From an uncultured Gammaproteobacteria bacterium (GTDB lineage Bacteria; Patescibacteriota; Patescibacteriia; CAZSQN01), in assembly GCA_964609095.1 (NCBI GenBank), contig CAZSQN010000002.1:88066-152065 (forward strand): DNA of 64,000 nt. Reading direction: 5' to 3'. The translations under genes and the position numbers were made by a program. Shown piece by piece: positions 27,619 through 64,000 of this stretch. The notes under the pieces were generated by a model. That model was not told the DNA's origin. It saw only the letters and a program-made list of their open reading frames with translations, and made no database searches. How positions within the stretch are numbered: the first letter of the stretch is position 1; each line of letters begins with the position of its first letter.

Positions 27619-27723
27619 AAGAGATAAGAGATAAGAGATAAGAGTTAAGAGTTAAAAATTTAGAAAGCTCTCTCAACTTTCAACTTTTAACTTTCAGCTT
27701 ACAGCTTACAGCTTTATCTTTAT
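27619..27723. repeat. Paired heptamer blocks: (AGAGATA)x3(AGAGTTA)x2 … (AACTTTC)x3(AGCTTAC)x3
   Basis: Seen directly; the second block ends at the subtilase stop codon. Confidence 0.8.
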
Positions 27724-45801: not shown

Positions 45802-45817
45802 TTTAGTGGAATGAAAA

Positions 45818-46504
45818 TTATAAACGGGTATGCAGACCGCATTCGCCTCCCAGATTCTGCGTGCCCGTAAATCGTCCGGCGCGCTCAAACTGCCCTTGGC
45901 GGCCTCCGCCTTCGCGCACCTTGCCGCCGGTAGTGCAGGGCTTGCAGCCCAGCGACAAATAACCATGGTCATAGAGCGGATGGTACCGGAGATTATTTTC
46001 TTTTATGTACTGCCAAACATCGTCTTTGGTCCAGAAAGCAATGGGGTTTATTTTGGCGATTTTGCCGGCCTCAACAATGGGCGTATTTTTGCGATACTCG
46101 GTTTCGTCGCGGCGCAAACCGGTAATCCAGGCGTCAAAGCGCGGCAAGGCGCTCTCAATGGCCGGAATCTTCATCTCGCAGCATTTATATTGGTCGTTCT
46201 TGATGAACGAGTCCCCATATTGTTCGTCTATCCGCTTAATGTCTTCCGAACCGGGATGCAGCCATTCAAAATTTAATTTCAATTCTTCAACCAAAGAATT
46301 GCCGTAAGACAATGTTTCTTCAAATTCATAACCGGTATCAATGCCCAAAAAACATAAATCGGGTTTGGCCTTGGTGGCCAAATCCACGATGACCCGCGAA
46401 TCCTTGCCAAAAGAGCAGGCGGCAAAAATGCGCGGATAGGCCTTGACCGCCAGTTTAATTATAGTTTGGGAGAGATCGGCTTTTTCTTTTAGAGTCAAAT
46501 TCAT
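45818..46504 (-). CDS. cysH: Phosphoadenylyl-/adenylyl-sulfate reductase (CysH family, Fe-S type)
   Basis: P-loop-like ACSFGKDSRVIVDLA; Cys pairs KCCEMK and CKPC; C-terminal ECGLH. Confidence 0.85.
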   Translation of the reverse strand: MNLTLKEKADLSQTIIKLAVKAYPRIFAACSFGKDSRVIVDLATKAKPDLCFLGIDTGYEFEETLSYGNSLVEELKLNFEWLHPGSEDIKRIDEQYGDSFIKNDQYKCCEMKIPAIESALPRFDAWITGLRRDETEYRKNTPIVEAGKIAKINPIAFWTKDDVWQYIKENNLRYHPLYDHGYLSLGCKPCTTGGKVREGGGRQGQFERAGRFTGTQNLGGECGLHTRL

Positions 46505-47686: not shown

Positions 47687-49051
47687 TTAATCAAGCAATC
47701 CTACTATAAATTCTCCTATTCGTAAAGCCGCCTGGCCGTCAGGATTATTGCAGATAACTTTGCGCATAATCTCGCGGGCTTCCGCGTCTTCCTCCGGATG
47801 CCGCAAATACAAATTGATAAAATCCTTAAATTCCTCCATGCTCTTTGCCACTCTCACCCCGCCGGTGGCAACCACCCGCGTATAATAAGAGGTTTTGAAT
47901 AAATTATTTTCTATTGAATCCCTTTTCTTTAGTTTTTTATAGCCGTCAAAAGCGACGCAAATCACCGGTTTGCCCAAAGTGATCGCGTCCAAAGAGAGGG
48001 TTGAGGCGGGATTGACCGTCACATCAGAAACATTTAACAAATTCGCCAGATGAATCATATCCTCGCGCGTCGGGTCTCCAAGTTCGGTAAAAATATCCGA
48101 CCTTCTGTGCTTGTCATCAACATAAACATTGGGTTCTTTGGCGAAACGGGAAAATCTGTTGGCGCGGCCGTCGGCAAAATGCGAACGGATAATAAGCGAG
48201 CAGGGAAAAGCGGTTTCTCCGGAATTTACCATTTTTGCCAAAATATCCGCGATGTCCTCATCATTGGGGCCGAAAAATCCTCCGGAACCGAAAAAAATAA
48301 CTTTTCTTGACGGATCAAGGCCAAGCGATTTTAAGAAACTGCCGCGTTCGGCAAAAATCCGCTCGGAATAAATATCAAACTGCGGAAAGCCCAAAACCCT
48401 GATGCGCTCCTTTGGGAAAAGCTGGGATTTGGAAGCCAGCGTCTTTAAGCTTTCATTGTAAACAATGAGCCAGTCGGGAGCGACGCGAAATAAGTATTTA
48501 TCAAACGTGTCCCAGCTTTTGGGCATAGCCACGGTTTTAACACCGCGCCTTTTCGCCTCTTTGAGCATCATCATATCAACATTGCCCAAAATAGAAGTTG
48601 AAAAAACTAAGTCCGGATTATATTTGTCAAAAAAATGTTTGTAATACCTGTCGCGGTAAAAAGTATATTCCATCCAACGAAACGCTTTTTTGACCGATCC
48701 AAACCTGGAAAAAATACGTCCGCACAAAATCCAAATTAAAAAATTCTTTAAGGAGCGTTTTCTCCGTCCATTGCCGTAACGGGCGTGGATGTAAGCGGTT
48801 TCGGTATCCACCATGTTAATCATCAATTGGGTAAAGACATTGCGCCTAAACCAGCCGGGAATAATCTTTTTAATCGGCTCAAAAACAACATTGCCATAAT
48901 TAAATTCCCGGCGGTATTCGTCCGGAATGCGGTCTGGTAAAAAAATAACTATGCGCAAATTGGGATGCTCCCGGATAACTTTAAAAACCGCGGTTCGGAG
49001 CACATTTCTCGCCGGAATACCCTGGGTAATGACGATAAATAAGGTCTTCAT
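47687..49051 (-). CDS. TagF/TagB-like CDP-polyol phosphotransferase family protein (paralog 1)
   Basis: C-terminal …DVTVNPASTLSLDAITLGKPVICVAFDGY…; paralogous to 50957-52312 and 54783-56165. Confidence 0.65.
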   Translation of the reverse strand: MKTLFIVITQGIPARNVLRTAVFKVIREHPNLRIVIFLPDRIPDEYRREFNYGNVVFEPIKKIIPGWFRRNVFTQLMINMVDTETAYIHARYGNGRRKRSLKNFLIWILCGRIFSRFGSVKKAFRWMEYTFYRDRYYKHFFDKYNPDLVFSTSILGNVDMMMLKEAKRRGVKTVAMPKSWDTFDKYLFRVAPDWLIVYNESLKTLASKSQLFPKERIRVLGFPQFDIYSERIFAERGSFLKSLGLDPSRKVIFFGSGGFFGPNDEDIADILAKMVNSGETAFPCSLIIRSHFADGRANRFSRFAKEPNVYVDDKHRRSDIFTELGDPTREDMIHLANLLNVSDVTVNPASTLSLDAITLGKPVICVAFDGYKKLKKRDSIENNLFKTSYYTRVVATGGVRVAKSMEEFKDFINLYLRHPEEDAEAREIMRKVICNNPDGQAALRIGEFIVGLLD

Positions 49052-49926
49052 AAAAATTTATTGACAAATTTTGCCGGCAAATTTTTGACTTTATGGGCCG
49101 GCGGGAGCAGGGTCTCAAAAAATCTGATAATTTGGATTTTTTTTCTAAATTTTTTTAAGTCGGGCTTTATTCCAAACTCCGCCGAGGCAACTGCCGGACG
49201 CGCGTCATCCATTCTCGCGGCAATAACTCTAATCGCTCTCGCGCCATCGGTCAAAGCAAATTTGATGATTTTTAGACCGGCTTTGGAAAGAACTAAATTT
49301 AAAGTGTGGGGGCTGTAATGGAAAAGGTGCCCCGGCTTAAAATAGCTGATGATATTTTTATTAATGCTTTCCACATTGGGAACTTCAATATAAATCATCC
49401 CTCCGTTTCCAAGCAAATCGCGGAGCGCTTCAAATTTTACGAGAGGGTCAGGCAGGTGTTCAAGCACATGGCGAAGCACGAAGAGATTAAATTTTTTATC
49501 TTTATTCGTCTCCACAAATTTCGACAGCGACGAAACAACTATTTTGGCGCGGGAAACCCGGCCGGCAAACTGCGCGGCGGCGCCATCCGGTTCAAGTCCG
49601 ATAAGTTCGGCGGATGTTCTCTCTTCAAGCGCTTTGAGCAAACGGCCATAGCCGCAGCCGATGTCAGCTATTCTGTCCGCGGCGTTCATTTCCTTTATGT
49701 ATTCATCCGCGAAATCAAGCGCGTCGGCATATTTATACAATGACTTCATCAGATTATCGCTTTCATTCGGAGCCCTGTTCCATTCCAAAACAGAATAATC
49801 TCCGGAAGTAAAAAGCAGGCCGCAATTCCGGCAGCCGGCAAGAACCGCCTCCGGTTTCCGGCGCAAAACGCAAATCAACATTTTCAAATCCGGACCGGCA
49901 TTACATAAAACGCAGTTCAACCGCAT
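49048..49926 (-). CDS. Class I SAM methyltransferase with Zn-ribbon
   Basis: CVLCN…CRNCG; motif I IADIGCGYGRLL. Confidence 0.8.
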   Translation of the reverse strand: MRLNCVLCNAGPDLKMLICVLRRKPEAVLAGCRNCGLLFTSGDYSVLEWNRAPNESDNLMKSLYKYADALDFADEYIKEMNAADRIADIGCGYGRLLKALEERTSAELIGLEPDGAAAQFAGRVSRAKIVVSSLSKFVETNKDKKFNLFVLRHVLEHLPDPLVKFEALRDLLGNGGMIYIEVPNVESINKNIISYFKPGHLFHYSPHTLNLVLSKAGLKIIKFALTDGARAIRVIAARMDDARPAVASAEFGIKPDLKKFRKKIQIIRFFETLLPPAHKVKNLPAKFVNKFL

Positions 49927-49931
49927 ATAAA

Positions 49932-50951
49932 TTAAATCAATCTAAAAACTATATATTTAAAAAATCTTTTAATCATAGCCAAAACAAAGGGCCGATTCGC
50001 AAAAACGCGCTTCAAAAAGACAAAAATTGCGCGCGCTTTTTCATTTATCTTTATCTTGCGCGCAAGCCTGAGCACATCCGAACCGCGCAAAAAAAATTCA
50101 AAAGGCATCGGCGGCCGATGGTCATTTGCCGGCGCGGCGACAAAGTTTATGCCTCTTTTTAACGGCCCTCTTAAAGACGAATCGGCCGTAAAATCCAAAA
50201 TCTTGAATCCGGCCTTAAAAAGCAGGAGAAACATAGTCCAAGGACTATAAGCGTAGACATGACGGAGAGAAACATGCTTATGCCCCAAGCTGGCGTCCGG
50301 AACGGCGATGTAAACGGCGCCTCCGGGCCTAAGCAGTTTTCGCAGCTTGCCAAGCGCGGCCACGGGGTCAAGCATATGTTCAAAAACATGGTGTAAGATA
50401 ATAAAATCAAATTCCCCATTATGAGCGCCAATGGAACAAAAATCATCAAGGCCTCCATTATAAATGTTAACGCCAAAAATCTTTCTGCCTATGTCGGCCA
50501 CGCTTTTATGCGGCTCTATGCCCAGCGCTTCGCAATGATATTTATCGCGAATGCGCCGCAAGGTGGTGGCAAAACCGCAGCCGACCTCCAGCGCCTTGGA
50601 GCCGGGCTTAATCCAGTTCGCGAGAGAAGCGACAAAAGCGTCTCTTTTCGGAGAGTCGGCGTCTTCTTCTTTAATCTTCCGTTCCAAATCGTCTTCCCTC
50701 GCGCGGCGCGCTTCCTGCCAATATTGCTCGCCGTAAAACCGGCGATAAAAATCAGCGTTGGGACGCGGACTTAAATAAACCAGGCCGCAAACCTTGCAGA
50801 TAACCGCCTGGCCGCCTTTGGGCGCCTCAAGACACGGAAGATTAATAACTTCTTGCGAATCGCAAATAGCGCAAGAAACTGTTTCAAAGCCGTAATCAAA
50901 ATTTTCTCTTTGCGGAGGATCATTATAAAATGTTGTCTTGATGTTTGGCAT
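49932..50951 (-). CDS. Class I SAM methyltransferase with Zn-ribbon
   Basis: CAIC…CKVCG; motif I LEVGCGFATTL. Confidence 0.8.
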   Translation of the reverse strand: MPNIKTTFYNDPPQRENFDYGFETVSCAICDSQEVINLPCLEAPKGGQAVICKVCGLVYLSPRPNADFYRRFYGEQYWQEARRAREDDLERKIKEEDADSPKRDAFVASLANWIKPGSKALEVGCGFATTLRRIRDKYHCEALGIEPHKSVADIGRKIFGVNIYNGGLDDFCSIGAHNGEFDFIILHHVFEHMLDPVAALGKLRKLLRPGGAVYIAVPDASLGHKHVSLRHVYAYSPWTMFLLLFKAGFKILDFTADSSLRGPLKRGINFVAAPANDHRPPMPFEFFLRGSDVLRLARKIKINEKARAIFVFLKRVFANRPFVLAMIKRFFKYIVFRLI

Positions 50952-50956
50952 AAAAT

Positions 50957-52312
50957 TTACTTCAACAATGATTGCAAAAAAGCCGCGATGCGGACAGAGG
51001 ATCGTCCATCCAATTTATAGCACATTCTGGAGCGTAAAAACTCCCGCCCAGCTTTATCCAGCTCTGGGTTTTCCAAATAAGCATTGACATGTTTCTTTAA
51101 AGCATCGGGCCCATCGGCTGCGCGAACGCCTCCGCTTTTCACCACCTTCTGATAATAAGACGTATTTAAAAGCGCCGAACCGTGTTCATCCTCTTTTAAA
51201 GCCACGCAAATCACCGGCTTATCAAATACCGCGGCATCAAGCGAGAGGCTTGAAGACGGATTAATAGTCACATCGGCAGAACGCAAAAAGTTTCCGAGCA
51301 ATTCCATGTCGCTTTTTTGCGGATCGGCCACGTTGCCGTAATCAGGCAATCGTTTAACGCTGTCATCAACGTAGACATTTGGCAATCCGGCAAAACAGTT
51401 AAACCTGACGGCGTTCTTATCTAAAAAATGCGGCCTGATTATAAGCGAACATTGTTTAACAAGCTGATTATCTTTGATAAAATCGTACAAAAAATTACCG
51501 ATATCCATATCGGAAGGCCCGTACAGTCCGCCGGAACCAAAAAAGATAACCTTACGGCCCGGATTAAGGCCCAATCCCAAAAGAAACGCGTCCCTGTCAA
51601 ACGGCTTTTTCATCTGCTCAACATAAGTATCAAAGTTAGGAAACCCGGTGACCGTTATTCCAGATTCCGGCACATCCTGAGATTTTACCGCTACTTGTTT
51701 CAAATCTTCGTTTTGCGCCATAAGATAATCGGGCTTAACGGGAAAAAGATATTTTTCAAAAGTATCCCATCCTTTGGGCATGGAAACCGTAGTAATGCCC
51801 CGCCTTTTCGCCTGCTTCAAAAGCATGACATCATACTTATTCATAATAGAAGTGGAAAAAACAACATCCGGCTTATACTTTTCAAAAATAGACTCATAAA
51901 CCATATCTTCCCTAAACAAAAACATCTCCAAACGCCTAAAAAATCTTTTGACCGTATTCAAACGGCCAAAAAGAGCGGACCAAACTATAAGAAAACCCAG
52001 ATAAAATAAGCTTCTGCCCTTCCCCGCTTGCCCGTAATGCGCCTTAAACATGGCAATGTCGCTATGAATAAGCGGCAGAATCAGATTATTAAAAAAAAGT
52101 TTCAACCGCGTGGTTGATTGTTCCTCCAAGCCAATAAAGGCGACATTGGACGCCAGAAATTCCCGCTCAAACTCGGGCGGCACATGACCGGTAGTTAATA
52201 TGTATATAAAAACATCCGGCGTCTCCTTAATAAGAGGTAAAACATCCGTGCGCAAAATATTTCTGGCAACCAAACCCGGCTCAGCGCGTATAAAAATATT
52301 TTTTCTTTGCAT
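50957..52312 (-). CDS. TagF/TagB-like CDP-polyol phosphotransferase family protein (paralog 2)
   Basis: Collinear with 47687-49051 (…PDVVFSTSIMNKYDVMLLKQAKRRGITTVSMPKGWDTFEKYLF…). Confidence 0.65.
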   Translation of the reverse strand: MQRKNIFIRAEPGLVARNILRTDVLPLIKETPDVFIYILTTGHVPPEFEREFLASNVAFIGLEEQSTTRLKLFFNNLILPLIHSDIAMFKAHYGQAGKGRSLFYLGFLIVWSALFGRLNTVKRFFRRLEMFLFREDMVYESIFEKYKPDVVFSTSIMNKYDVMLLKQAKRRGITTVSMPKGWDTFEKYLFPVKPDYLMAQNEDLKQVAVKSQDVPESGITVTGFPNFDTYVEQMKKPFDRDAFLLGLGLNPGRKVIFFGSGGLYGPSDMDIGNFLYDFIKDNQLVKQCSLIIRPHFLDKNAVRFNCFAGLPNVYVDDSVKRLPDYGNVADPQKSDMELLGNFLRSADVTINPSSSLSLDAAVFDKPVICVALKEDEHGSALLNTSYYQKVVKSGGVRAADGPDALKKHVNAYLENPELDKAGREFLRSRMCYKLDGRSSVRIAAFLQSLLK

Positions 52313-52345
52313 AAAACCGGAAGCTGGAATTATTCGGACAGGGAT

Positions 52346-53356
52346 TTATTTGTTCGTAAACATGCTTTTGGCGTATTCATCCACAAAATCGCAGCTGTTG
52401 CACAGAGGATTCTTTTTTTTGAAATAAGCCCGTAAAAACGCCAGTCGCTTTGGGGCTTTCCAAACATCCTCAAGAGTTTTTTCCAAAACATTGCCCCAGC
52501 TGTATTTGCCGTCAAAATCAAAACAGCACGGCGCCACTTCCCCGCCGGCCAAAATGGAGCACTGGCTGAACTGCGGACAAAATCCCATATTCTTATAATA
52601 ACGCGAATCATCTTTATTCTGTAATCTCTGAAAATAGGCGTCGTCCGGCAGGAAGTCGGAAATCAGCTTATCCGTTTTGTCCAGTTCCCGCCCCATGTTC
52701 GGCGCCTTAATGGCGTATTCGTCAACTCCAATTTCTTTAAGAAAATCAACAATCTTTCCTATTTCGTGCTGGTTGTGCTTAAACACAAGGGTCTGGACTC
52801 TTAATCGCGGATATTTAAGTCCGCGCCTTTTTTTCTCCGCGGTAATTTTCTTGATATTTTCTATGACGACATTAAATTTTCCTCCGACGCGGTATTTTTC
52901 ATGCGTTTCCGGGCTGAAGCCGTCAAGCACCATCTGCAAACTGGTCAGGCCCGAATTCAAAATATCATCAACGTAATGCCCGACCAGCATGGTATTGGAA
53001 GAAATGTGCGTTTTAATGCCGCGCTCGGCGCAGGCCTTAATCATCTTAAAAATATCCTTGTTCAAAAACGGCTCGCCCATCAGATAAAAAGATATGGCTT
53101 TGGCATGCTTTTCTATTTTGGAAAGTATTTGAGAAAATCTTTCAAAATCCATATGTTCCAGCTTGCGCTTCATAATAGTGTGCCACGGACACATCGGGCA
53201 TTTATGATTGCAGATATTGGTGGCTTCAACAATAAAAGAAGTGGGCAACTTTCGCGCCATAATCCATACTTTTAAACCGAGCGGGAGCTTCTTAAATAAC
53301 CTGATTTTCCAATGCTCTTTCTTTGTTTTTTTATCTTTTTGAGGGCTTTCCACCAT
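52346..53356 (-). CDS. Radical SAM / SPASM-domain protein
   Basis: CNHKCPMCPW (CxxxCxxC) and a C-terminal Cys cluster (CCFDFDG…CNSCDF). Confidence 0.8.
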   Translation of the reverse strand: MVESPQKDKKTKKEHWKIRLFKKLPLGLKVWIMARKLPTSFIVEATNICNHKCPMCPWHTIMKRKLEHMDFERFSQILSKIEKHAKAISFYLMGEPFLNKDIFKMIKACAERGIKTHISSNTMLVGHYVDDILNSGLTSLQMVLDGFSPETHEKYRVGGKFNVVIENIKKITAEKKRRGLKYPRLRVQTLVFKHNQHEIGKIVDFLKEIGVDEYAIKAPNMGRELDKTDKLISDFLPDDAYFQRLQNKDDSRYYKNMGFCPQFSQCSILAGGEVAPCCFDFDGKYSWGNVLEKTLEDVWKAPKRLAFLRAYFKKKNPLCNSCDFVDEYAKSMFTNK

Positions 53357-53397
53357 AAATTTTACGCTTAATTATAAAATATATAATAACCAAAATT

Positions 53398-54771
53398 TTA
53401 GACCGCGTCAATCTTATTAGAATCCGTTGACGGACGGAATTTGCTTATAAGAAAACTGATTAACTTGCGGTCATAATTGTCAAAAACAAAGAAGCTCCTG
53501 GCGCTGATCGTGGGAAGATTGTGCTTTTTTCTAAGATGCCTCTCGCAAATAACCGTAAAGGCGGCCATGCGCAAAAATTCCGCGTAAATAATGCCGACGG
53601 GCCCGGAAAAAAACAGTAGCAAAGGCATGGAAATAAGGTATAAAACCTTGGAGATATTGGCGACGGTAAAAATGAATTTCTGGTCCTTGACCGCGTAAAG
53701 CAAATCTTCCTGGCCAAAAGCCAGAAGATGAAACACGAACATCAGCAGATAAATTTTGAAAAAAGGCAGAGCGCCGATAAATTTAGGCAAAAGCCATTCT
53801 ATGACCGGAGGCGCAAAGAAGTAAGCGCCGAGTCCAAAAACCAGGTAAATCAGCGCCAGATATTTTTTTGCTTTCTGAACTATAAAAACAGCCGTTCCCG
53901 GTTCGGATATTTTCCTTGACACCACGGGGAAAATAACAGCCGCAACCGGAACCAAGCCCAAAAGCACTTCGTACAAATCTTTGCCCGTGGCGTAAAACGC
54001 CAGCGCGGCTTTGCTGAAAAATATGCCGATAATCAAAGGCCCTAAAGGCCTGACGGCTTGGTTCAGCAATGTTTCAAAAATCCTCCACTTTCCGTGTCCG
54101 GCCACCACCCTCCACAAGACGCCGGCGGAAGCAATTTGGACGCCTCTAAGGTAGCCCAACGCCTTAACGGCAAAAGGCAAACTGACGGCTACCACGACCA
54201 TTTTTGAAAGGACATAAGAAGCAAGAAGCGTGGTCGTGTTTAATCCGCCGGTCAAAATAAAAAAACTGGCGCCGGCTAATTTGCTTGCCGATTCAATAAC
54301 CGGCAGAAAAGCAAAGTCCTTAAATCGTTCATGGCTTCTAAAAATCTGCTGAAAGAAAACCTGCGCGACCTGCAAAACAAGAAGCGCGATAAATAAAACA
54401 AAAAACAAAGTTTGCTCCACTCCGAGAACCGCTCCGATCACCGGCTTAAAAGGAATAACCAGCAGGGCAAACAGCGCGGTAAGCGCAAAAGATGCCTTAA
54501 AATATTCAAGCATCAGCCGCTTTATGACATCAAATCTCCTTTCGCCTATGAGCCGCGCCACCTCGGAAATAATAAGCTCGTTAATCCCAAAAAGCGGGAT
54601 GGAAGCAAGGGGCGAGATCAAAGAGAGCGAGAGCAGAACCGTGCCGTAATCGCTGACGGAGATATTTCTTAAAACTATAAAAGCCGACGCCAAAGAAACC
54701 AGGCGCAGGACAATGTTTGCTCCGCCAAGCCACATCAGACCTCCGACTATTTTGCGTTTTAGGGAAACCAT
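53398..54771 (-). CDS. Wzx-like oligosaccharide flippase (MOP/PST family)
   Basis: 12-14 TM; polysaccharide-biosynthesis-protein N-terminal signature. Confidence 0.75.
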   Translation of the reverse strand: MVSLKRKIVGGLMWLGGANIVLRLVSLASAFIVLRNISVSDYGTVLLSLSLISPLASIPLFGINELIISEVARLIGERRFDVIKRLMLEYFKASFALTALFALLVIPFKPVIGAVLGVEQTLFFVLFIALLVLQVAQVFFQQIFRSHERFKDFAFLPVIESASKLAGASFFILTGGLNTTTLLASYVLSKMVVVAVSLPFAVKALGYLRGVQIASAGVLWRVVAGHGKWRIFETLLNQAVRPLGPLIIGIFFSKAALAFYATGKDLYEVLLGLVPVAAVIFPVVSRKISEPGTAVFIVQKAKKYLALIYLVFGLGAYFFAPPVIEWLLPKFIGALPFFKIYLLMFVFHLLAFGQEDLLYAVKDQKFIFTVANISKVLYLISMPLLLFFSGPVGIIYAEFLRMAAFTVICERHLRKKHNLPTISARSFFVFDNYDRKLISFLISKFRPSTDSNKIDAV

Positions 54772-54782
54772 GAAACGGATGA

Positions 54783-56165
54783 TTAAGTATCGGCGCGCCG
54801 GATTTGCGCGATCGCCTCCGCAATCCGGTCGCCTACATGGCCGTCATATTTATAAACAATTTTTCGCCGCAATTGCTCGCGCTCCGCCGCTTCCGCTTCC
54901 GGATGAAGCAAATACCGGTTAATTTCGCTAATAAGCGAATCAGGACCGTCTGCCAATCTTATGGCGCCGGTTTTAAGCCAATAGTCATGATGGTCGTATT
55001 CTTTGTAAAACTGATTTTTAGAAGTGAAATACGGCGTCGGCAAAAGATCAAAATTTAAAGAAATCACCGGCTTGTCCAAGCAAGAGACGTCAAAAGCAAA
55101 AGTGGAACCGGTCATCACCGTTAGCGAGCTGTGATAAATAAGATTGGCAAGCCAAATGATATTCTCGCGAGACGGATACCATTTATCCACAAACGCGGAC
55201 TGGTCCGTGCGGGAATCATCTATATAGACCTCCGCGTTGCCGATAAATTTCTTAAACGGATTGTTCGTATCGCGGGGATGAATGCGGGCAACGATGCTTA
55301 CCGGTTTTACAAATCTATTTTCATGTTTGGCGTTTAAAAGCAAATCAACCATTTCAGCGTCATCCCGGCTTTGCGCCGCCTCTGAAGCGTAAAGGACTAT
55401 ATTTGAAGCCGGATCAACGTTGATTTTTTTGCAAAACTCGGCGCGGGACGTAAAAATTGAAGCATCGTGATAAATATCATATTGGGAAATGCCCACCGGC
55501 AAAACGCGCTCCGGCTTAAAATTATTATGCGTTAACGCCTCTTGCTTCATAAGTTCATTCCAAACCAAAAGCAAATCCGGTTTGGCTCTGATTACTCCTT
55601 TTGAAGTAAGGTTGTCTATGGAAAGCACGCAGCCGATGCTTGGCACGCCTTGCGCTTTCGCGCGTTTGATAAACCGATGCTCCATCTGAACATGAGTTGA
55701 GACGGCCGCGTCCGGCTTATGTTCATCAAAAATTTTTTTAAAAATCTTGTCGGGAAAAAATTTGTCGTCCAGCCGCCGCAATAATTCCAACGCTCTCATG
55801 TTTCCGCGCAAAAAAAAGTGCGGCATGGAAAGAGCCGCGTAGAGCAGGTATTTTTTCCTAAGAAGCATTTTCTTTTTAAACCAGCGGACTGTCCTGGTGT
55901 TTAACGTGCTGTTTATAAGCGCGACCAAAAATCTTTCGGCAAAACCGCGGCCGTGATTTATTAAATAAAGTTTGCCGTAATCCGGATAAGGAATAAGAGT
56001 TATTTTTTCTCCCTTGTAAACCTCGCGCAAAAGGCGAAAACCGCTCTCCGGAGCGGCAATAATAATGTCGCATCCGCGGGCAAGCAATTTTTCAATGACC
56101 CCCGCGGAAATCATGTTGCGCGCGGCAATGCCAAAGGGAAAAGTGATAAGAATTTTTTTGGACAT
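54783..56165 (-). CDS. TagF/TagB-like CDP-polyol phosphotransferase family protein (paralog 3)
   Basis: C-terminal …SSLTVMTGSTFAFDVSCLDKPVISLNFDLL…Y…; same architecture as the other two. Confidence 0.65.
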   Translation of the reverse strand: MSKKILITFPFGIAARNMISAGVIEKLLARGCDIIIAAPESGFRLLREVYKGEKITLIPYPDYGKLYLINHGRGFAERFLVALINSTLNTRTVRWFKKKMLLRKKYLLYAALSMPHFFLRGNMRALELLRRLDDKFFPDKIFKKIFDEHKPDAAVSTHVQMEHRFIKRAKAQGVPSIGCVLSIDNLTSKGVIRAKPDLLLVWNELMKQEALTHNNFKPERVLPVGISQYDIYHDASIFTSRAEFCKKINVDPASNIVLYASEAAQSRDDAEMVDLLLNAKHENRFVKPVSIVARIHPRDTNNPFKKFIGNAEVYIDDSRTDQSAFVDKWYPSRENIIWLANLIYHSSLTVMTGSTFAFDVSCLDKPVISLNFDLLPTPYFTSKNQFYKEYDHHDYWLKTGAIRLADGPDSLISEINRYLLHPEAEAAEREQLRRKIVYKYDGHVGDRIAEAIAQIRRADT

Positions 56166-56834: not shown

Positions 56835-57641
56835 TTAAAACAAATAATTCTTGCCCAAAATAAAATGATAGCGCATAAACCGCCAAACGTATTTTGGCGG
56901 AAGAGAAGCGCGAAAACCGAACTTTAAATATATCACGCCGCTTTTTAGCGCTATATATACGGCTTTTAAAAAATTATTAATTGCTTTTTTTATCCGCTTC
57001 GGCAAAGGAATGGATTTAACTCCGCCGGAGGCAAGTTCAAGATAATAATTATCTTTGCGCAGGCAGCTTTCCCAATCCTCCCACGGCGACATAATCGCTT
57101 CTTGCAGATAAATTTTATTTATGCCGTCGGGGAAAAACGGCTTTTCATGAACTTTTTTTGCGCCGCCGCCGCTCTTGTAATAAATCCCGCCCTTTCTGTT
57201 CCATACCCGCAAAGGCATATCGGGATAAAAAAAGGCATATTCAATAACCTTATCTCCGATCACCGTCTTTCTGTTAACCAAGGCGGCGTCAAGAATATTA
57301 TTGCGCGACACGATGCCTCTGATGGCAGTAACAAGCTCCGGCGTCACATACTCGTCAGAATCCACGGCAAACACCCAATCGTTTTTGGGCAGAGAAAAAA
57401 GCCGGTTGCGTACCTCAATAAAATTAGTTATTTTTACGTTTTTTTCTTTCGTTTCTGTCTGCGGGTAAATAGCCGCGCCATATTTCCCGGCTATTTCTAA
57501 AGTATTATCAGTGCTATTGCCGTCCATCACGACGATTTCATCAAACTCAACCAATCCCGACAAACACCGCTCCAATGTCTTGCCGGAATTCAAAGTCAAG
57601 ATGCAGGCGGTACAAGGAATTTTTGATTTGTCTTCCGTCAT
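56835..57641 (-). CDS. Glycosyltransferase family 2
   Basis: …CILTLNSGKTLERCL…VVMDGNSTDNT…. Confidence 0.75.
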   Translation of the reverse strand: MTEDKSKIPCTACILTLNSGKTLERCLSGLVEFDEIVVMDGNSTDNTLEIAGKYGAAIYPQTETKEKNVKITNFIEVRNRLFSLPKNDWVFAVDSDEYVTPELVTAIRGIVSRNNILDAALVNRKTVIGDKVIEYAFFYPDMPLRVWNRKGGIYYKSGGGAKKVHEKPFFPDGINKIYLQEAIMSPWEDWESCLRKDNYYLELASGGVKSIPLPKRIKKAINNFLKAVYIALKSGVIYLKFGFRASLPPKYVWRFMRYHFILGKNYLF

Positions 57642-58750
57642 AATCTGAAAAACGCTCTTATTTTTTCAATAATATGGGCCTGCTCCGGCTCTCCCAATTC
57701 CGGATAAATCGGCAAAGAAACAATTTCTTTGGAGAGCTTTTCGGCAAAGGGATATGAACCCGGCAAAAGTCCCAAATGCGCATAAGCTCTCTGCAAATGA
57801 ATCGGAATCGGATAATGAATGCCTGTGGCCACGCCGCGCTCCGCGAGATATGCCTGCAGCTGCTCGCGCTCTTTTGTCTTAATTATATAGAGATGATAAA
57901 CAGGAACACATCCTTCGGTATTTTTTACCGTTTCTATCGGCAAACCAACAAAAGCGGCATCAAATTTTTTCGCCAGTTCGCGGCGCTTTTCATTCCACTC
58001 GTCCAAATGCGGCAGTTTGATATTTAAGATCGCCCCTTGCAGCGCCTCCAAACGCATATTGAAACCGATAATTTCGTGTATATATTTTTGCTTTGAGCCG
58101 TGATCTCTAAGCAAGCGGACCGCCTCCGCCAGCTCGCCGTTACTAGTGACTACCGCTCCGCCTTCGCCATAAGCGCCCAAATTTTTGCCGGGATAAAAAC
58201 TAAACGCGGCCGCGTCCCCCCAAGAGCCGGCCTTCTTTCCCTTAAAACTCGCGCCGTGCGCTTGAGCCGCGTCTTCCAGCGTAAGAAGCCCATGGCGGCG
58301 CGCGACATCTAAAATCTTATCCATCTCGCCCATAGCGCCAAAAAGATGAACTGGGATGACAACCTTCGTAACCGGAGTAATCGCTTCTTCCAGCTTGCTC
58401 GCGTCAAGCTGGTGCGTTTCCGGATTAACATCAACAAATACCGGCTTGGCGCCCGTAAGAGAGACGGCTTCGGCCGTGGCAAAAAAACTATTTGGCTGGG
58501 TAATTACTTCTGCTCCCGGACCGCAACCCATGGCGAGAAGCGCGAGGTGGAGCGCGGAGGTGCCCGAATTCACTCCAACCGCGTATTTTGTTCCGCAGTA
58601 AGCGGCAAAATCATTTTCAAATTTTTGCACTTCCGGGCCAAGGACAAAATTGCCGCTAAGAAATACGCGCTGCGCGGCGCCATCAAGCTCGCCGCGAAGA
58701 GAAGCGTATTGGGCGCGCAAATTTACAAGCGGGATATTCATGCTGGACAT
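57638..58750 (-). CDS. DegT/DnrJ/EryC1/StrS-family PLP-dependent sugar aminotransferase
   Basis: …AVGVNSGTSALHLAL…; K in …AAFSFYPGKNLGAYGEGG…. Confidence 0.88.
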   Translation of the reverse strand: MSSMNIPLVNLRAQYASLRGELDGAAQRVFLSGNFVLGPEVQKFENDFAAYCGTKYAVGVNSGTSALHLALLAMGCGPGAEVITQPNSFFATAEAVSLTGAKPVFVDVNPETHQLDASKLEEAITPVTKVVIPVHLFGAMGEMDKILDVARRHGLLTLEDAAQAHGASFKGKKAGSWGDAAAFSFYPGKNLGAYGEGGAVVTSNGELAEAVRLLRDHGSKQKYIHEIIGFNMRLEALQGAILNIKLPHLDEWNEKRRELAKKFDAAFVGLPIETVKNTEGCVPVYHLYIIKTKEREQLQAYLAERGVATGIHYPIPIHLQRAYAHLGLLPGSYPFAEKLSKEIVSLPIYPELGEPEQAHIIEKIRAFFRL

Positions 58751-58761
58751 AAAATAAAAAA

Positions 58762-59493
58762 TTAAATTAGGCGCTTTTCCCCGACATCCCAGGCAACTTT
58801 CGCCGGATTGCCAAAGACGACTTTTCCCGCCGGAACATTGCCGACCACTACCGAACCCATCGCCACAAGCGCGCCCTCTCCGATAATCGCGCCCGGAGAA
58901 ATAGACGCGTTCGCTCCAATCATGGCCCTATCTTTTACGATTGTCTTTTTGCTGGCGTCAGGAACTCTCGCGAACGAGGCGTCGGAGCAGGTAGAAACAT
59001 CAGGACCGATAAATACATAACTGCCAATCTCCATATTTTCCGTGATTTGCGAACAATTCATAATTCTTGTATGCTCTCCGATTTTAACCCTGTCCTGGAG
59101 CGAAACGGCTTTCCCCAGCACCGACTCATCGCCTATCCGACAATTTTCCCGCACGTTAGCCATATCAGCTATAAACACATTTTTGCCGATTGAAGTCCCG
59201 CGATAAATAATAACCCCGGAGCCGATAACTGTCCCGTCGCCGACGCGAAGCGGCTCCGGGGTGGAAAGCTTGTAAGTGGAATTAGGGCCTGATTTGGGCG
59301 GCCTGCCGACAATGGCGTTATCCAAAATAATAACATTGTTGCCGATAACAGTGTCCGGATAAATAACCGCGTTATTGCCCACCGATACCCCGTCCCCTAT
59401 CTTTACCCCTTCGTAAATGACCACATTAAACTCATACAAAAAATCTTTGCCCGTGATTACAGTTTCATGTTTATGCAAATTTTTATTAAGCAT
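58762..59493 (-). CDS. Hexapeptide-repeat (left-handed beta-helix) sugar N-acetyltransferase
   Basis: Repeated [LIV]G-x4 hexapeptides. Confidence 0.8.
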   Translation of the reverse strand: MLNKNLHKHETVITGKDFLYEFNVVIYEGVKIGDGVSVGNNAVIYPDTVIGNNVIILDNAIVGRPPKSGPNSTYKLSTPEPLRVGDGTVIGSGVIIYRGTSIGKNVFIADMANVRENCRIGDESVLGKAVSLQDRVKIGEHTRIMNCSQITENMEIGSYVFIGPDVSTCSDASFARVPDASKKTIVKDRAMIGANASISPGAIIGEGALVAMGSVVVGNVPAGKVVFGNPAKVAWDVGEKRLI

Positions 59494-59497
59494 ATGT

Positions 59498-60778
59498 TTA
59501 ATTTGATTTGTGAGTCGTTACCCAGCGCACAAGGCGGTCAAAAAGAAACATTCCATCCCAGGGCGATTCATAAAAAGTAAGATAACCAAGCTCCGGGCAC
59601 CTGTCTATTCCCTTCACGGTCAGCGCGTCCACATATTTAAGTTTATTTTCGGCCGTAAATCCCAGCCCCAAGGTCTGTTTTTGCCGGTCGTTAAAATCTT
59701 TTAATTCGTTAAAATCTTTTATGGGTTTTACAAAAACAACGCGGGACCCGACGCGCTCTCCCAATCCGGGCTCATTGGTATAAATAACGGTCCATTCCGT
59801 TCCCTTTGATTTAAAAACTTTTCCCTTGAGGGCGTATTTATTTCTCGCGCCGACAATTGCCGCCGCCGTTTCCGAGCCGACCGGCCCCTTGGGCATAAAC
59901 AGCCGGGAGGCGCGCTCAAGTTCCAGTGAAAGCATCTCGGCGAAAGCTGCTGCGTCCCCTTCTTTTGCTTCTTGCGCAAAGACAATGTGAGGCGAAGAGC
60001 AGGCGGATTGGTCAAAAACAGAGATATCAACGGACAAACGCCCCGCTAGCGCATGGCCGTGTTTTAGGAGCGACTCTTTGTCTATGGCCGCGTAAGAATA
60101 TTTCGGCCCGAAAATAATATCTTCGCAAAACATCTTTTTCTTTAATCCGACAATGGCGTCTATGGCTTCATATCCGCCCCAGGCAATTCTCACATCGGCT
60201 ATTTCCGAGAGAGCTTCATGGCTGCTTCTATCCTCGGCATCGGCTAAAAACACGGCTACCGAATGGCCAAAATCGCGGCCGGAGATTGCGGGCGTTTCCA
60301 CCTCGTTCATCGCGTCCAGAAAATAAATCAAATCCTCATAAGCGCCTCTTGGGGCTTTGACCAGACAAACGTTTTTGGTCAGCAGGGCGGAAAAAATGGA
60401 AAATAGCCCCAAAACGGGAGTATTGCCCGCAATCCAATGGGCCGTTATCCCTCTCGGCTGGGCGTGAAAGAGCAATTTATCGTCGCCCAAATCAATCAAT
60501 TTGTCAAGAGAAAGACGGCTGCCGTGAAGCGCTATATCCAAGCTTCGCGCCAGCTTTTTTTTATCCAAAAAATCAGAGATATTTTTTAAATAAGGATATT
60601 TTTTAAGCATCCCGGACGAACCCCATTGCCGGGAGAGTTCGCCGAAAAAATCAATAATATCATCGGCTTCTAGGCCGTGCATGTATTCCAAACGGCCGGC
60701 CATTTGCGCGGCCAGGCGGTTCAAATCAAAATTTATTTCATTTTTGCGAACGCCGTGAAAAATCAAAGTTCTTTCCAT
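59498..60778 (-). CDS. LuxC-like acyl-CoA/acyl-protein reductase
   Basis: …HWIAGNTPVLGLFS…; active-site Cys region DQSACSSPHIVF; ~430 aa, ALDH-like. Confidence 0.7.
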   Translation of the reverse strand: MERTLIFHGVRKNEINFDLNRLAAQMAGRLEYMHGLEADDIIDFFGELSRQWGSSGMLKKYPYLKNISDFLDKKKLARSLDIALHGSRLSLDKLIDLGDDKLLFHAQPRGITAHWIAGNTPVLGLFSIFSALLTKNVCLVKAPRGAYEDLIYFLDAMNEVETPAISGRDFGHSVAVFLADAEDRSSHEALSEIADVRIAWGGYEAIDAIVGLKKKMFCEDIIFGPKYSYAAIDKESLLKHGHALAGRLSVDISVFDQSACSSPHIVFAQEAKEGDAAAFAEMLSLELERASRLFMPKGPVGSETAAAIVGARNKYALKGKVFKSKGTEWTVIYTNEPGLGERVGSRVVFVKPIKDFNELKDFNDRQKQTLGLGFTAENKLKYVDALTVKGIDRCPELGYLTFYESPWDGMFLFDRLVRWVTTHKSN

Positions 60779-60795
60779 AATTTGCCGAATGAAAT

Positions 60796-61896
60796 TTATA
60801 ATCTTAAAACATCGCCGCAGCCGCGGAGTTCCGCCGCCTCTGACCTTTTCTCAAAAACAAAATATTTTCCCTTACGGCCGCAAGGACAATCATCAATGCC
60901 GGCAATACTGCCAATATCATCAGAAAGTACCGATATCCCCGGATAACTTCTCGGAATAGGGCTTAAAAATTGCATCAACCCCGATTTGCCGGGCGGAGAC
61001 GGAAGAAGAGTGTCTTTATCGCGGACAATTATATCCGAATATAAAGGCGCGTGCTTAAATCCGGCCTGGCAATCGGGATAAACGGTTCCCAGCTGTTCAG
61101 TCATGCCGTAAATATCGCGGACGGCCGCGCCGGGAATCCCCAGCGCCGCGCCCGCCCGTTCGTTAAATTGTTCGCGGCTTACGGCCATATCTTTAAGCTT
61201 TTTCCATCCGCCGATATGGAGCGCCAGCGCCTGCTTGCCCGAAGAGAGCGCGGAAAGCGATTTGAAATTTTCCTTGTTGGCCGCGTCGGAAAAAAAATTA
61301 TAAAGAAGCCAGGTAAAACCAAAATAAAACACCTTATCGGCGCGCTCTACCTCCTCGCGGGCGGCTTTAATTTTTTCGCCGTCTATCCGCAAATCATCAT
61401 CGCACAAAAATACTGATTTTTTCGCCATACCCAGCATGCCCATGACCGCGGCGCCGCGCGAAGACAGCTCCCCCGACGGGCTTTTAATGATTTTTTCGGT
61501 ATCAAAAATCAGAAAAACTCCGCGCTCGCTTCCGAAAAAATCAGCCAAAATCCTGTTAAGCGCGATTATCTGGCGGTTAGAAGTGATTCTGTCCAGCATT
61601 ATTTTGCTCGGCTCTCCCGAAGTGGAGCTTGAAAACAATGTCTTAGTAATCTCTTCCGGCGGCACGGAAGAGAGCGGCATCGCCTTAAACATGGACGGCG
61701 ACAAAAAAGGTATGTCTTCCAGAGCGTAAGCCGAAGACGGTTCAAAGCCGTCTGCCTCGCAAATCTTGCGAAAAACCTCGCTATTTTCATAATGCCAGAA
61801 AACCGCGCTCTTTATATCGCGGAAAAAAATGTCTTTTTTTTCCGCGGCGGAAAGTTCAAACGGCTTATAATTTAACGTTTCAAGCTCTTGATTCAT
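60796..61896 (-). CDS. LuxE-like acyl-protein synthetase
   Basis: P-loop-like FSSSTSGEPSKIM; adenylate-forming fold of the LuxE type; start probably MNQELE. Confidence 0.7.
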   Translation of the reverse strand: MNQELETLNYKPFELSAAEKKDIFFRDIKSAVFWHYENSEVFRKICEADGFEPSSAYALEDIPFLSPSMFKAMPLSSVPPEEITKTLFSSSTSGEPSKIMLDRITSNRQIIALNRILADFFGSERGVFLIFDTEKIIKSPSGELSSRGAAVMGMLGMAKKSVFLCDDDLRIDGEKIKAAREEVERADKVFYFGFTWLLYNFFSDAANKENFKSLSALSSGKQALALHIGGWKKLKDMAVSREQFNERAGAALGIPGAAVRDIYGMTEQLGTVYPDCQAGFKHAPLYSDIIVRDKDTLLPSPPGKSGLMQFLSPIPRSYPGISVLSDDIGSIAGIDDCPCGRKGKYFVFEKRSEAAELRGCGDVLRL

Positions 61897-61900
61897 AAAA

Positions 61901-62965
61901 TCAGATATGGCGCCGGATAATCTCCGCAACCTCATCCGCTCCCGGCCGTATTGGATTGGCAAGCGCGCAAATATCCTTGCGCACCGCTTCCGCGCAAAAA
62001 ATAACTTCCTCTTCTTTTAACGGCAAGGGGTCAAAAACCAATCCAAGCTCCTTGTACAAACCGGAGAAAACAGGCAATATATTTTGAGAATTTGCCATTT
62101 TTAATTTATCAAACTTTTTATAAACATCTCCGGAGCGCGAATTAAATTCCAGAACATCAAGAAAAAACATGGCCACGGCGCGGGCGTGCGGAATATCATA
62201 TTTAGCGCCGAAATAATGCGCCAAAGCGTGATTTAAGCCGGTGGCGGCGCTGCTCTGCGCCAAACCCGCCAGCGTGGCGGCCAATTTAAGCTGTTCCAAA
62301 ATCTTAAGGCCATCCGCCGGTTGGCGGATAGCCGCAAACTCGCGCAAATTATCATAAATGCCGCGAATGGCGCCGAGCGCCAGCGCGTCAGAAAAAGAAT
62401 TGGACATTTTTGAAAGCAGCGCCTCAACCGCGTGAGAAAGCGCGTCAATGGAATGCAGGGCGATTTGCTCTTTTGAATGGGACAAAAAGAATCTGGCGTC
62501 AATAAGCGCCGCTTCCGGCAGAAGGCGCGGCGAAGAAACAACAATTTTTTTATTTTCGCGGACATCCGAGAGAAGGGCAAACCTGCTCACCTCCGCGCCG
62601 GAACCAATGGTAGTGGGAACGGCTATCATTTGGATTTTAAGGTCGTCTTTAACGATTTTAACCAAATCAATCACCGAACCGCCGCCGATGGCCGCGAGAT
62701 ATTTGCTCCCGTTCTTCCGGCATCTCTCTCTAAGTTCCTCGCGGTCTTCCGTTTTCGGCTCTCCGCTATGCGTTACAAACTCCGCCTTGCCCAAAATTGA
62801 ACGGATTAATTCGTCTTGCCGCTTAAAAGCGTTCGCGGAGATGACAAACAAAACTTTTTCGCCGGAAAGCTTTTTCAAAAAATCCAAACTGCCCGAACCG
62901 AAATAAACGCTTCTTGGAAAATGCGCTTGGGGAATAAACGAATTTAGAAAAATTTCATCAATCAT
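61901..62965 (-). CDS. Iron-containing alcohol dehydrogenase family protein
   Basis: …AAIGGGSVIDLVK…; Fe-ADH Gly-rich motif; conserved His-rich C-terminal half. Confidence 0.75.
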   Translation of the reverse strand: MIDEIFLNSFIPQAHFPRSVYFGSGSLDFLKKLSGEKVLFVISANAFKRQDELIRSILGKAEFVTHSGEPKTEDREELRERCRKNGSKYLAAIGGGSVIDLVKIVKDDLKIQMIAVPTTIGSGAEVSRFALLSDVRENKKIVVSSPRLLPEAALIDARFFLSHSKEQIALHSIDALSHAVEALLSKMSNSFSDALALGAIRGIYDNLREFAAIRQPADGLKILEQLKLAATLAGLAQSSAATGLNHALAHYFGAKYDIPHARAVAMFFLDVLEFNSRSGDVYKKFDKLKMANSQNILPVFSGLYKELGLVFDPLPLKEEEVIFCAEAVRKDICALANPIRPGADEVAEIIRRHI

Positions 62966-64000
62966 AAAATCCTGTCTGTCTTGCCTTAAGCGCGTGGCGG
63001 ATAATTTTGCCGTTTTCAGTGCGGGGAATGCTGTCAATTCTAAAAATCTCCCCGGGCAGTTTGCTTCCTTCCAGTTTGCCTCTTAAGGCATTCCTAATAA
63101 CCTCGTCGGAAACCGGCCGCGCCTCGGTGATAAAAAGCCGCACTGCCTCGCCCAATAGCGGATCGCTCGCGCCTACCGCCGCGGCATCGGCCACTCCGTC
63201 TACGGTTTTGGCCGCCTGTTCTATTTCATAAGGAAATACTTTTTCTCCGGAAACATTGATAATATCATCCTGCCGGCCGTCAAAATAAACAAAGCCGTCA
63301 GCGTTTTTATGCCCCATATCGCCGGTATGCAGCCATCCGCCGGAGACGCTTTTTGACGCCTCGTCATTGTCCCAATAAGAATCAATGACATGGGGCCCCT
63401 TGATGCAAATTTCCCCCGTTACTCCGGGCAGTACCTCCCCGCCGGAAGCGTCCATTATCTTAATTTCCGCGCCCGGAACCGCCGCTCCCACCAATCCTTG
63501 TTTGTAGCCGGCTGTTCTGAAATTGACAAAGGCAGAGCGCGACGCTTCCGTCAGGCCGTAGTAATAATAAAAATCAGCCAGCGGAAGCGCGGAAAGAATT
63601 CCGCTTACCAATTCTTCTTCCAAAATAGAGATATTGGTCTGAACAAATCTTAATCCCCGGCAGCGCTCTAATTCCGGCCGAAAATCGCGCAGCATCAGCC
63701 GCAGAATAGCCGGCGCCGCGCCAAAAGTCGTTGCTTTTTTCTCGAAAATGGCGGCTAAAATATTTTTAAGGCCGATGGCGTCTCTGAATAAAACCGTTGT
63801 TCCTCCAGCCGCGAAAACACAGTGCAGATGCCCTAATCCGAACGAATGCGAGAGAGGCGAAACATTGACATCAATATCATTTTCATTCCATTTCAAAATA
63901 TTAATAATGTTTTTTGTCGCGGAGACCGCGTTTCTATGCCGCAATTTAACTCCTTTGGGCTCTCCCGTGGTTCCGGAAGTAAAAATAACGGTTGAAACAT
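62958..64000 (-). CDS. AMP-dependent synthetase/ligase (ANL family), partial; N-terminus beyond the window end
   Basis: The P-loop TSGTTGEPKGV is encoded at 63950-63985 on the minus strand; …WLHTGDMGHKNADGFVYFDGRQDDIINVSGEKV…GKI…. Confidence 0.8.
   Translation of the reverse strand, partial: VSTVIFTSGTTGEPKGVKLRHRNAVSATKNIINILKWNENDIDVNVSPLSHSFGLGHLHCVFAAGGTTVLFRDAIGLKNILAAIFEKKATTFGAAPAILRLMLRDFRPELERCRGLRFVQTNISILEEELVSGILSALPLADFYYYYGLTEASRSAFVNFRTAGYKQGLVGAAVPGAEIKIMDASGGEVLPGVTGEICIKGPHVIDSYWDNDEASKSVSGGWLHTGDMGHKNADGFVYFDGRQDDIINVSGEKVFPYEIEQAAKTVDGVADAAAVGASDPLLGEAVRLFITEARPVSDEVIRNALRGKLEGSKLPGEIFRIDSIPRTENGKIIRHALKARQTGFYD

Follow-up and report, generated by a model that had tools for sequence, protein, structure and literature searches.

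The stretch of DNA analysed here (64,000 nucleotides (nt), referred to as the window) ends in a block of six genes that combines LuxC- and LuxE-type enzymes with an iron-containing alcohol dehydrogenase (Fe-ADH), an AMP-forming acyl ligase of the ANL type, a hexapeptide-type transferase and a sugar aminotransferase of the DegT family. A preliminary description of this DNA, made from its letters and open reading frames (ORFs), had named all six gene types, and each was recovered at its proposed position with scores far beyond chance. Every long ORF from about 30.9 kb to the window end lies on the minus strand. The six genes are given below in order of transcription, with protein lengths in amino acids (aa).

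62958 to beyond 64000, minus strand: ANL (AMP-forming) acyl ligase (PF00501, 147 bits on the fragment; PF13193)
61901-62965, minus strand: Fe-ADH, 354 aa in the deposited genome (PF00465, 90 bits, and PF25137, 97.8 bits)
60796-61896, minus strand: LuxE-type acyl-protein synthetase, 366 aa (PF04443, 218.5 bits, E 2e-64, cut-off 24.9)
59498-60778, minus strand: LuxC-type acyl-thioester reductase, 426 aa (PF05893, 210.4 bits, E 5e-62, gathering cut-off 21)
58762-59493, minus strand: predicted left-handed beta-helix (hexapeptide, LbH) N-acyltransferase, 243 aa (PF00132, 112 bits)
57638-58741, minus strand: DegT/DnrJ/EryC1 sugar aminotransferase, 367 aa (PF01041, 403.6 bits)

The four enzymes from the ligase to LuxC had been described as lying downstream of the DegT and acetyltransferase genes; as all of these genes are on the minus strand, the four-enzyme block is instead transcriptionally upstream of them. 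Spacing ranges from an 8-nt overlap between the ligase and Fe-ADH genes to a 20-nt gap, with non-overlapping genes 4–20 nt apart. The hexapeptide transferase gene starts 4 nt past the LuxC stop codon, and the DegT gene overlaps the gene that follows it, which encodes a GT2 glycosyltransferase, by 4 nt. Given this tight spacing and these overlaps, the six genes fit a single operon-like block.

The window contains the C-terminal 347 of the 499 ligase codons, and the ligase gene starts at the equivalent of window position 64457. An exact match to the LuxC protein led to a parent contig, JACOZF010000008.1 (GCA_016181485.1, 313.5 kb), from a Candidatus Uhrbacteria bacterium; the LuxE- and LuxC-like proteins are deposited as hypothetical (MBI2099176.1 and MBI2099175.1, respectively). 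Coordinates on this flank, L001, convert as window position = 70779 minus L001 position. Directly upstream of the ligase, past 64000, lie three further genes, for a Gfo/Idh/MocA oxidoreductase, an AcpS-type phosphopantetheinyl transferase (PPTase) and an acyl carrier protein (ACP), the last of which the preliminary description had expected just beyond the window end.

Beyond 64000: Gfo/Idh/MocA oxidoreductase (PF01408, 88.7 bits)
Beside the ACP gene: AcpS-type PPTase, 125 aa (PF01648, 58.7 bits)
L001 6083-6325: ACP, 80 aa, with the motif NWDSLAHMQLV (PF00550, 21.6 bits, cut-off 20.8)
L001 6322-7821: full-length ANL ligase, 499 aa (PF00501, 237 bits)

The complete unit reads Gfo/Idh/MocA oxidoreductase, AcpS-type PPTase, ACP, ANL ligase, Fe-ADH, LuxE, LuxC, hexapeptide transferase and DegT. 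The W-D-S of the carrier protein motif is invariant among 20 aligned homologues, and a profile of the ACP family matches 100 solved acyl carrier proteins; the top solved structure is PDB 2lml.

The LuxE and LuxC assignments were borne out by profile scores that exceed the Pfam thresholds about ten-fold. Compared with Photobacterium LuxC (PDB 7xc6_A, 90 bits), the LuxC-type protein places FDQSACSSP opposite YDQQACFST, and its Cys residue, C260, is invariant among 24 homologues. The LuxE-type protein aligns with LuxE of Photobacterium phosphoreum (7xc6_E, 78 bits) with a C-terminal RGCG opposite KGCS in the region of the acylated Cys. Both proteins are considerably closer to RfbN of Vibrio cholerae, with 244 bits for LuxE and 223 bits for LuxC, about three times their scores against the luciferase-system proteins. 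Because of this relationship, together with the Pfam scores and the synteny, we rejected the possibility, raised in the preliminary description, that the two proteins are generic paralogues of aldehyde dehydrogenases or phenylacetate–CoA ligases (PaaK). A lux bioluminescence operon was also rejected: neither LuxD, LuxAB luciferase nor fatty-acid synthesis (FAS) genes are found among the cassette neighbours in the window and the parent contig flank, and the NCBIfam lux equivalog cut-offs were missed (NF052251, 108 bits versus 750; NF052244, 87 bits versus 550). On the upstream side, the neighbours are the Fe-ADH, ligase, ACP and PPTase genes; on the downstream side lie those for the hexapeptide transferase, DegT and GT2.

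Tetronate-type cassettes have been known from sequence since 1995, and the original proposal of the tetronate pathway is reportedly that of Morona et al. in that year. The preliminary description had likened the block to the rfb region of V. cholerae O1 on the basis of enzyme types, and this likeness extends to gene order. The rfb region of V. cholerae ATCC 14035 was fetched by means of the published Hoshino O1-rfb primer (printed in 20 papers), the complete locus including rfbO was obtained by a protein search with an RfbN fragment and contig look-up, and the proteins were compared by BLASTP. The V. cholerae order, RfbK (ACP, 77 aa), RfbL (ligase), RfbM (Fe-ADH), RfbN (a LuxE and LuxC fusion, 825 aa) and RfbO (hexapeptide transferase), is identical to that of the Uhrbacteria cassette, and five proteins show homology with E values from 1e-8 to 3e-77.

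ACP and RfbK: 25-27% identity, E 1e-8, with WDSLAHM common to both
ANL ligase and RfbL: 30% identity over 445 aa, E 2e-50
Fe-ADH and RfbM: 26% identity over 365 aa, E 2e-31, in equivalent position
LuxE and the N-terminal half of RfbN: 39% identity over 379 aa, E 3e-77, with RGCGDV around the acyl-cysteine common to both
LuxC and the C-terminal half of RfbN: 33% identity over 417 aa, E 1e-68
Hexapeptide transferase and RfbO: 25% identity, E 2e-6
DegT and RfbE: 30% identity

The ligase carries a TSGTTGEPKG motif and a C-terminal GK motif, and its closest solved relatives are MenE (182 bits) and oxalate–CoA ligase (164 bits), compared with 168 bits to RfbL. For Fe-ADH, the best PDB match is the ADH domain of AdhE (114 bits), with 111 bits to RfbM. 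The hexapeptide transferase is judged not to be an orthologue of RfbO, despite its equivalent position after LuxC. In V. cholerae, VC0248-VC0252 have been assigned to synthesis of tetronate, a small hydroxy-acid carried by the O antigen, with RfbL activating 2,4-dihydroxybutanoate onto CoA or RfbK, and a wbeL deletion strain is without O antigen (PMC3441752, PMC12208996). For the further statement of the preliminary description, that analogous cassettes make 3-hydroxybutyryl or glyceryl amides, the present analysis came upon no confirmation.

During this comparison, the V. cholerae 'O1-specific' forward primer, GTTTCACTGAACAGATGGG, which is in wide use, gave exact 19-nt matches in seven non-Vibrio genomes (L007-L012 and L014), and in one of these, a Pseudomonadota metagenome-assembled genome (L008), LuxE and LuxC homologues lie on the 8-kb stretch with the primer match. 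These matches concern a single primer and say nothing on PCR specificity.

To place the module among its relatives, homologous loci were compared. The nearest LuxC homologues share up to 61% identity, and the named relatives belong to the candidate phyla radiation (CPR; Uhrbacteria and Beckwithbacteria), to DPANN (Woese-, Aenigm-, Nano- and Micrarchaeota) and to one Nitrosopumilaceae archaeon; literature searches found no paper linking LuxC/LuxE-type cassettes with CPR or DPANN. Three annotated relative loci keep the order PPTase-ACP-ligase-ADH-LuxE-LuxC beside DegT, Gfo, NeuB and cytidylyltransferase genes, and the family of the adjoining acyltransferase varies between them (Antibiotic_NAT, GNAT or PglD_N). 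In distant lineages, an acyltransferase (LbH, PglD_N, GNAT or Antibiotic_NAT) adjoins the cassette in nearly all cases, even in relatives without a nearby DegT or Gfo gene. An association with sugar clusters, the lack of which the preliminary description would have counted against its reading, was found consistently in the relatives. PPTase is absent from the cluster in V. cholerae and in a Bacteroidales relative.

A metagenome scan confirmed at least 413 of 600 pattern-matched stretches as relatives and returned 80 loci, which were annotated with profiles built from the window proteins. Among these metagenomic loci, LuxE lies directly upstream of LuxC in 56 of 58, and both the ligase and the ACP are found upstream in 36 of 37. 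A PPTase is present in 26/31 and an Fe-ADH in 17/37, while a hexapeptide transferase follows within two genes downstream in 40 of the 55 loci and DegT is present in 16 of the 22 large loci. In the subgroup most like the window, defined by a LuxC identity of 48% or more, identity of the transferase is 47–58%, matching the range of ACP, ligase, ADH, LuxE and PPTase, whereas DegT is only 33–43% identical. Since the transferase co-varies with the cassette and DegT does not, the transferase can be regarded as part of the cassette and the aminotransferase as exchangeable.

Two variants were seen among the relatives. Many close relatives carry a gene for a 135–147-aa Glyoxalase_4 protein of the VOC superfamily between LuxC and the hexapeptide transferase (L003 10278-10706, L022 10272-10679, L029 10272-10703 and L038 1677-2090), of which there is none in the window. 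VOC-fold enzymes include methylmalonyl-CoA epimerase, and the Glyoxalase_4 protein might act on the acyl thioester in the lineages that carry it. A large marine metagenome subgroup (L039-L091, for example L050 and L063), with LuxC about 40% identical and no Fe-ADH, has the layout PPTase (on the opposite strand), ACP, ligase, LuxE, LuxC and hexapeptide transferase; next comes a Polysacc_deac_1/DUF3473 protein, a GT2 or a protein of 259 aa without a Pfam match. In this subgroup, the product may remain an aldehyde, or a different reductase may be used.

On the acceptor side, the best solved relatives of the DegT protein are 7b0d (380 bits), DesV (2oga, 370 bits), QdtB (3frk, 345 bits) and WbpE (3nu7, 281 bits), while it scores 223 bits against perosamine synthetase and 184 against ArnB. 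For the transferase, the best solved relatives are QdtC (3fs8, 71 bits), WxcM-like 4mzu, 7s3u and WlbB (3mqg). DesV, QdtB and WbpE introduce an amino group at C3 of nucleotide sugars; QdtC and WlbB act on such a C3 amine by acylating it. The Gfo oxidoreductase matches GnnA (PDB 7bvj) with 77 bits. Taking these similarities to C3 enzymes together with the adjacent Gfo gene, we propose a WbpB/E/D- or GnnA/B-like route to a 2-acetamido-3-amino sugar, so that the acceptor looks like a C3-amino sugar and not a perosamine-type C4-amino sugar. Perosamine was rejected as acceptor because both DegT and the transferase resemble C3 enzymes, with 223 bits to perosamine synthetase against 345–380; in addition, Gmd and ManB/ManC genes are absent beside the cassette in the window and the parent contig flank. 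An identity of DegT as PseC was likewise rejected (TIGR03588, 270 bits versus a cut-off of 423.5). The presence of a nucleoside diphosphate-sugar dehydrogenase in the cluster leaves open a uronic acid form of the sugar.

Collectively, we consider it probable, on comparisons of sequence and gene order, that the unit is a self-contained, ACP-dependent N-acyl tailoring module within a large surface-glycan cluster, which would place a short hydroxy-acid onto a 3-amino sugar. LuxE would adenylate one carboxyl group of a small di-acid and acylate itself on its C-terminal Cys, LuxC would take the thioester from LuxE and reduce it to an aldehyde with NAD(P)H, and Fe-ADH would turn this aldehyde into an alcohol, yielding an omega-hydroxy acid whose V. 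cholerae counterpart is 2,4-dihydroxybutanoate (tetronate). The ANL ligase would adenylate the other carboxyl group and load the acid onto holo-ACP made by the cassette's own PPTase, and the hexapeptide transferase would then pass the acyl group to the C3 amine of the sugar to form an amide. That amine would be supplied by the Gfo-type dehydrogenase, making a 3-keto nucleotide sugar from UDP-GlcNAc or its uronic acid, and by DegT, aminating it at C3. We infer the identities of the acid and the sugar, the use of acyl-ACP by a QdtC-like transferase and the order of the steps, which might run on the free or the ACP-bound acid. Each gene is used once in this scheme, which makes it the most economical reading.

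Several observations weigh against this proposal. QdtC and WlbB use acetyl-CoA, not acyl-ACP. These two nearest solved relatives of the transferase are also named N-acetyltransferases in their PDB records, and the best NCBIfam match of the Gfo protein, UDP-GlcNAc 3-dehydrogenase, is weak (138 bits versus a cut-off of 450). Conservation of the cassette does not extend to DegT, which would supply the amine. Fe-ADH is missing from about half of the relatives, so the alcohol step is not universal. Furthermore, the ligase and ADH are no nearer to RfbL and RfbM than to generic members of their families; orthology is therefore demonstrated only for LuxE and LuxC, and the ligase and ADH appear to correspond to RfbL and RfbM in family and position only. 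For V. cholerae itself, the pathway roles derive from homology and genetics, not enzymology (PMC3441752, PMC12208996, PMC9915646), the role of WbeM has been called unclear (PMC9915646), and no reconstitution of any RfbK-N-type cassette was found in the literature.

In the main rival reading, which we regard as unlikely, the transferase would be a plain 3-N-acetyltransferase that depends on acetyl-CoA and belongs to a WbpB/WbpE/WbpD- or Qdt-like route, and the cassette acyl group would be attached elsewhere by another enzyme, for example to a nonulosonic acid from the NeuC/NeuB/CMP-transferase genes of the cluster. The closest solved relatives of the transferase (QdtC, WlbB and 7s3u) are indeed N-acetyltransferases, genes for NeuC, a pair of NeuB-like synthases and a pair of cytidylyltransferases are present in the cluster, and Aeromonas cassettes of a similar kind are located among pse genes. 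However, the transferase gene begins 4 nt past LuxC and its product co-varies in identity (47–58%) with the cassette as DegT does not, nearly every relative has an acyltransferase adjoining the cassette, also when DegT and Gfo genes are not nearby, and RfbO occupies the equivalent position in V. cholerae.

An alternative with less in its favour, and in our view improbable, is a lux-like fatty acid reductase whose long-chain aldehyde or alcohol product would go into a lipid or 'liposugar' anchor, a role guessed at earlier for the islands of flagellin glycosylation. LuxC and LuxE do share homology with the complex that reduces myristate, and similar cassettes have been interpreted as fatty-acid synthesis (PMC7874193, PMC4875605), but LuxD, luciferase and FAS genes are not adjacent in this case and the lux equivalog scores are far from their cut-offs (87 versus 550 and 108 versus 750). 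Moreover, among homologues whose glycan product is known, the nearest is that of V. cholerae O1, which is associated with a four-carbon acyl group, and the nearest solved relatives of the ligase, MenE and oxalate–CoA ligase, act on dicarboxylates. It is very improbable that the locus encodes an acid-to-amine route in which DegT aminates the LuxE/LuxC aldehyde, as proposed for tambjamine alkylamine tails. A preprint reportedly brings enzymes of the LuxC/LuxE type together with an ACP and an aminotransferase in a pathway of this sort (10.1101/2025.08.11.669332), whereas the DegT protein here is a typical nucleotide-sugar aminotransferase (345–380 bits to DesV and QdtB) that is not conserved with the cassette, and Fe-ADH directly precedes LuxE in the window-like subgroup.

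Further genes of the glycan cluster in the window, and one gene just outside it, are listed below.

27723-30014, minus strand: 763-aa secreted protein, by eye a putative subtilisin-like protease followed by FG-GAP/VCBS-like repeats
34284-36197, minus strand: NeuB-like synthase, 637 aa, fused to a xylose-isomerase-like TIM barrel (PF01261)
42754-43500, minus strand: TauE/SafE sulfite-exporter family protein
44629-45972, minus strand: UDP-sulfoquinovose synthase-like short-chain dehydrogenase/reductase (SDR) (NF041015, 478 bits over the full length, cut-off 575)
45818-46504, minus strand: PAPS/APS reductase (183.6 bits, above the cut-off of 154)
46509-47684, minus strand: NeuC-type hydrolysing 2-epimerase (289.6 bits, above the cut-off of 235.9)
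47687-56165, minus strand: three paralogous 450–460-aa proteins with weak Glyphos_transf (PF04464) matches

A methyltransferase gene (43516-44514) separates the TauE gene from the adjacent SDR and PAPS/APS reductase genes, and the three sulfur-related genes, confined to some 3.8 kb, point to a possible sulfo-sugar in the glycan of this cluster. The 155-nt overlap between the SDR and PAPS/APS reductase ORFs suggests that the SDR starts at a later ATG. The nonulosonic-acid gene set on the minus strand between 34284 and 47684 comprises NeuC, two NeuB-like synthases and two CTP_transf_3 cytidylyltransferases. Among the three PF04464-like paralogues are genes for a radical SAM/SPASM protein (52346-53356), a Wzx-like flippase and several methyltransferases. 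The gene for the 763-aa secreted protein lies just beyond the edge of the glycan cluster, and its product may be a surface protein that is glycosylated.

The locus introduces no new principle, but its setting is informative. The complete split-gene version with its own PPTase is widespread in CPR and DPANN and appears to be coupled to a C3-amino sugar route. If the N-acyl tailoring module works as proposed here, ultra-small episymbionts would be expected to display unusual N-acyl diamino sugars at their surfaces. A broader possibility, which we raise only tentatively and hold to be somewhat doubtful, is that PPTase-ACP-ligase-ADH-LuxE-LuxC-transferase constitutes a mobile, self-sufficient surface-glycan acylation module of CPR and DPANN, which would encode its own PPTase because these organisms have no fatty-acid synthesis, making it their sole carrier-protein system, and which may add an undescribed hydroxyacyl group to a 2,3-diamino sugar of surface glycoproteins. 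The compact set of soluble proteins also offers a clean system in which the 1995 tetronate hypothesis could be tested in vitro, and the comparison matters for related flagellin-island cassettes, which have been labelled 'fatty acid synthesis' or 'bioluminescence'.

Among known systems, the P. phosphoreum LuxC-LuxE proteins (PDB 7xc6) share both enzyme folds and both acyl-accepting cysteines with the Uhrbacteria proteins, but the scores are only 78–90 bits and the Uhrbacteria genes lie in a glycan cluster, not a lux operon. The WbpB/WbpE/WbpD, GnnA/GnnB and QdtB/QdtC routes use an equal trio of Gfo-family dehydrogenase, DegT aminotransferase and hexapeptide N-acyltransferase; their transferases are N-acetyltransferases, whereas the Uhrbacteria transferase forms part of an ACP cassette. 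The flagellin glycosylation islands of Aeromonas (group II) and Enterobacteriaceae seem to follow a similar logic in a glycan-cluster setting beside nonulosonic acid genes (PMC7874193, PMC4875605). In these islands, which were compared by their published gene lists only, an SDR ('3-oxoacyl-ACP reductase') replaces Fe-ADH, an arrangement that is also present on a Ponticoccus plasmid (NZ_CP047167.1, L097). RefSeq labels the LuxC homologues of this plasmid and of a Rhizobium plasmid (NZ_CP098804.1, L098) 'GO:0008218 bioluminescence', and LuxE 'long-chain fatty acid--CoA ligase'. In the Rhizobium plasmid, the hexapeptide transferase of the cassette is named 'acyl-ACP--UDP-N-acetylglucosamine O-acyltransferase' (acyl-ACP-dependent, LpxA-like), and split transketolase genes precede the cassette, as in the Bacteroidales relative L016.

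Aeromonas piscicola AH-3, the island of which includes ACP, SDR, ligase, luxE and luxC genes, makes a pseudaminic acid derivative of 376.14 Da together with a 102-Da moiety (PMC7874193). By mass arithmetic, dihydroxybutanoyl (C4H6O3) corresponds to 102.03 Da, and exchange of one acetyl group for it in a Pse5Ac7Ac residue (316.13 Da) gives 376.15 Da. This agreement is a lead only, as other compositions fit the nominal masses.

The closest counterpart in gene order is V. cholerae O1, where ACP-ligase-ADH-LuxE-LuxC-hexapeptide transferase is collinear with RfbK-L-M-N-O and where, as in Uhrbacteria, the genes lie in a glycan cluster with a DegT aminotransferase. The two systems differ in four respects: LuxE and LuxC are fused as RfbN in V. 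cholerae, whereas they are two separate genes in Uhrbacteria; the V. cholerae cluster is without a PPTase, whereas an AcpS-type PPTase precedes the ACP in Uhrbacteria; RfbO (188 aa) comes from a different hexapeptide-transferase subfamily from that of the QdtC/WlbB-like Uhrbacteria transferase; and the V. cholerae acceptor is GDP-perosamine, made with Gmd and RfbE, whereas Uhrbacteria combine a Gfo oxidoreductase with a C3-type DegT. Compared with the already known RfbK-N-type core, the Uhrbacteria module encodes LuxE and LuxC separately, includes a PPTase of its own, has a transferase of the QdtC type and is linked to what looks like a C3-amino acceptor route.

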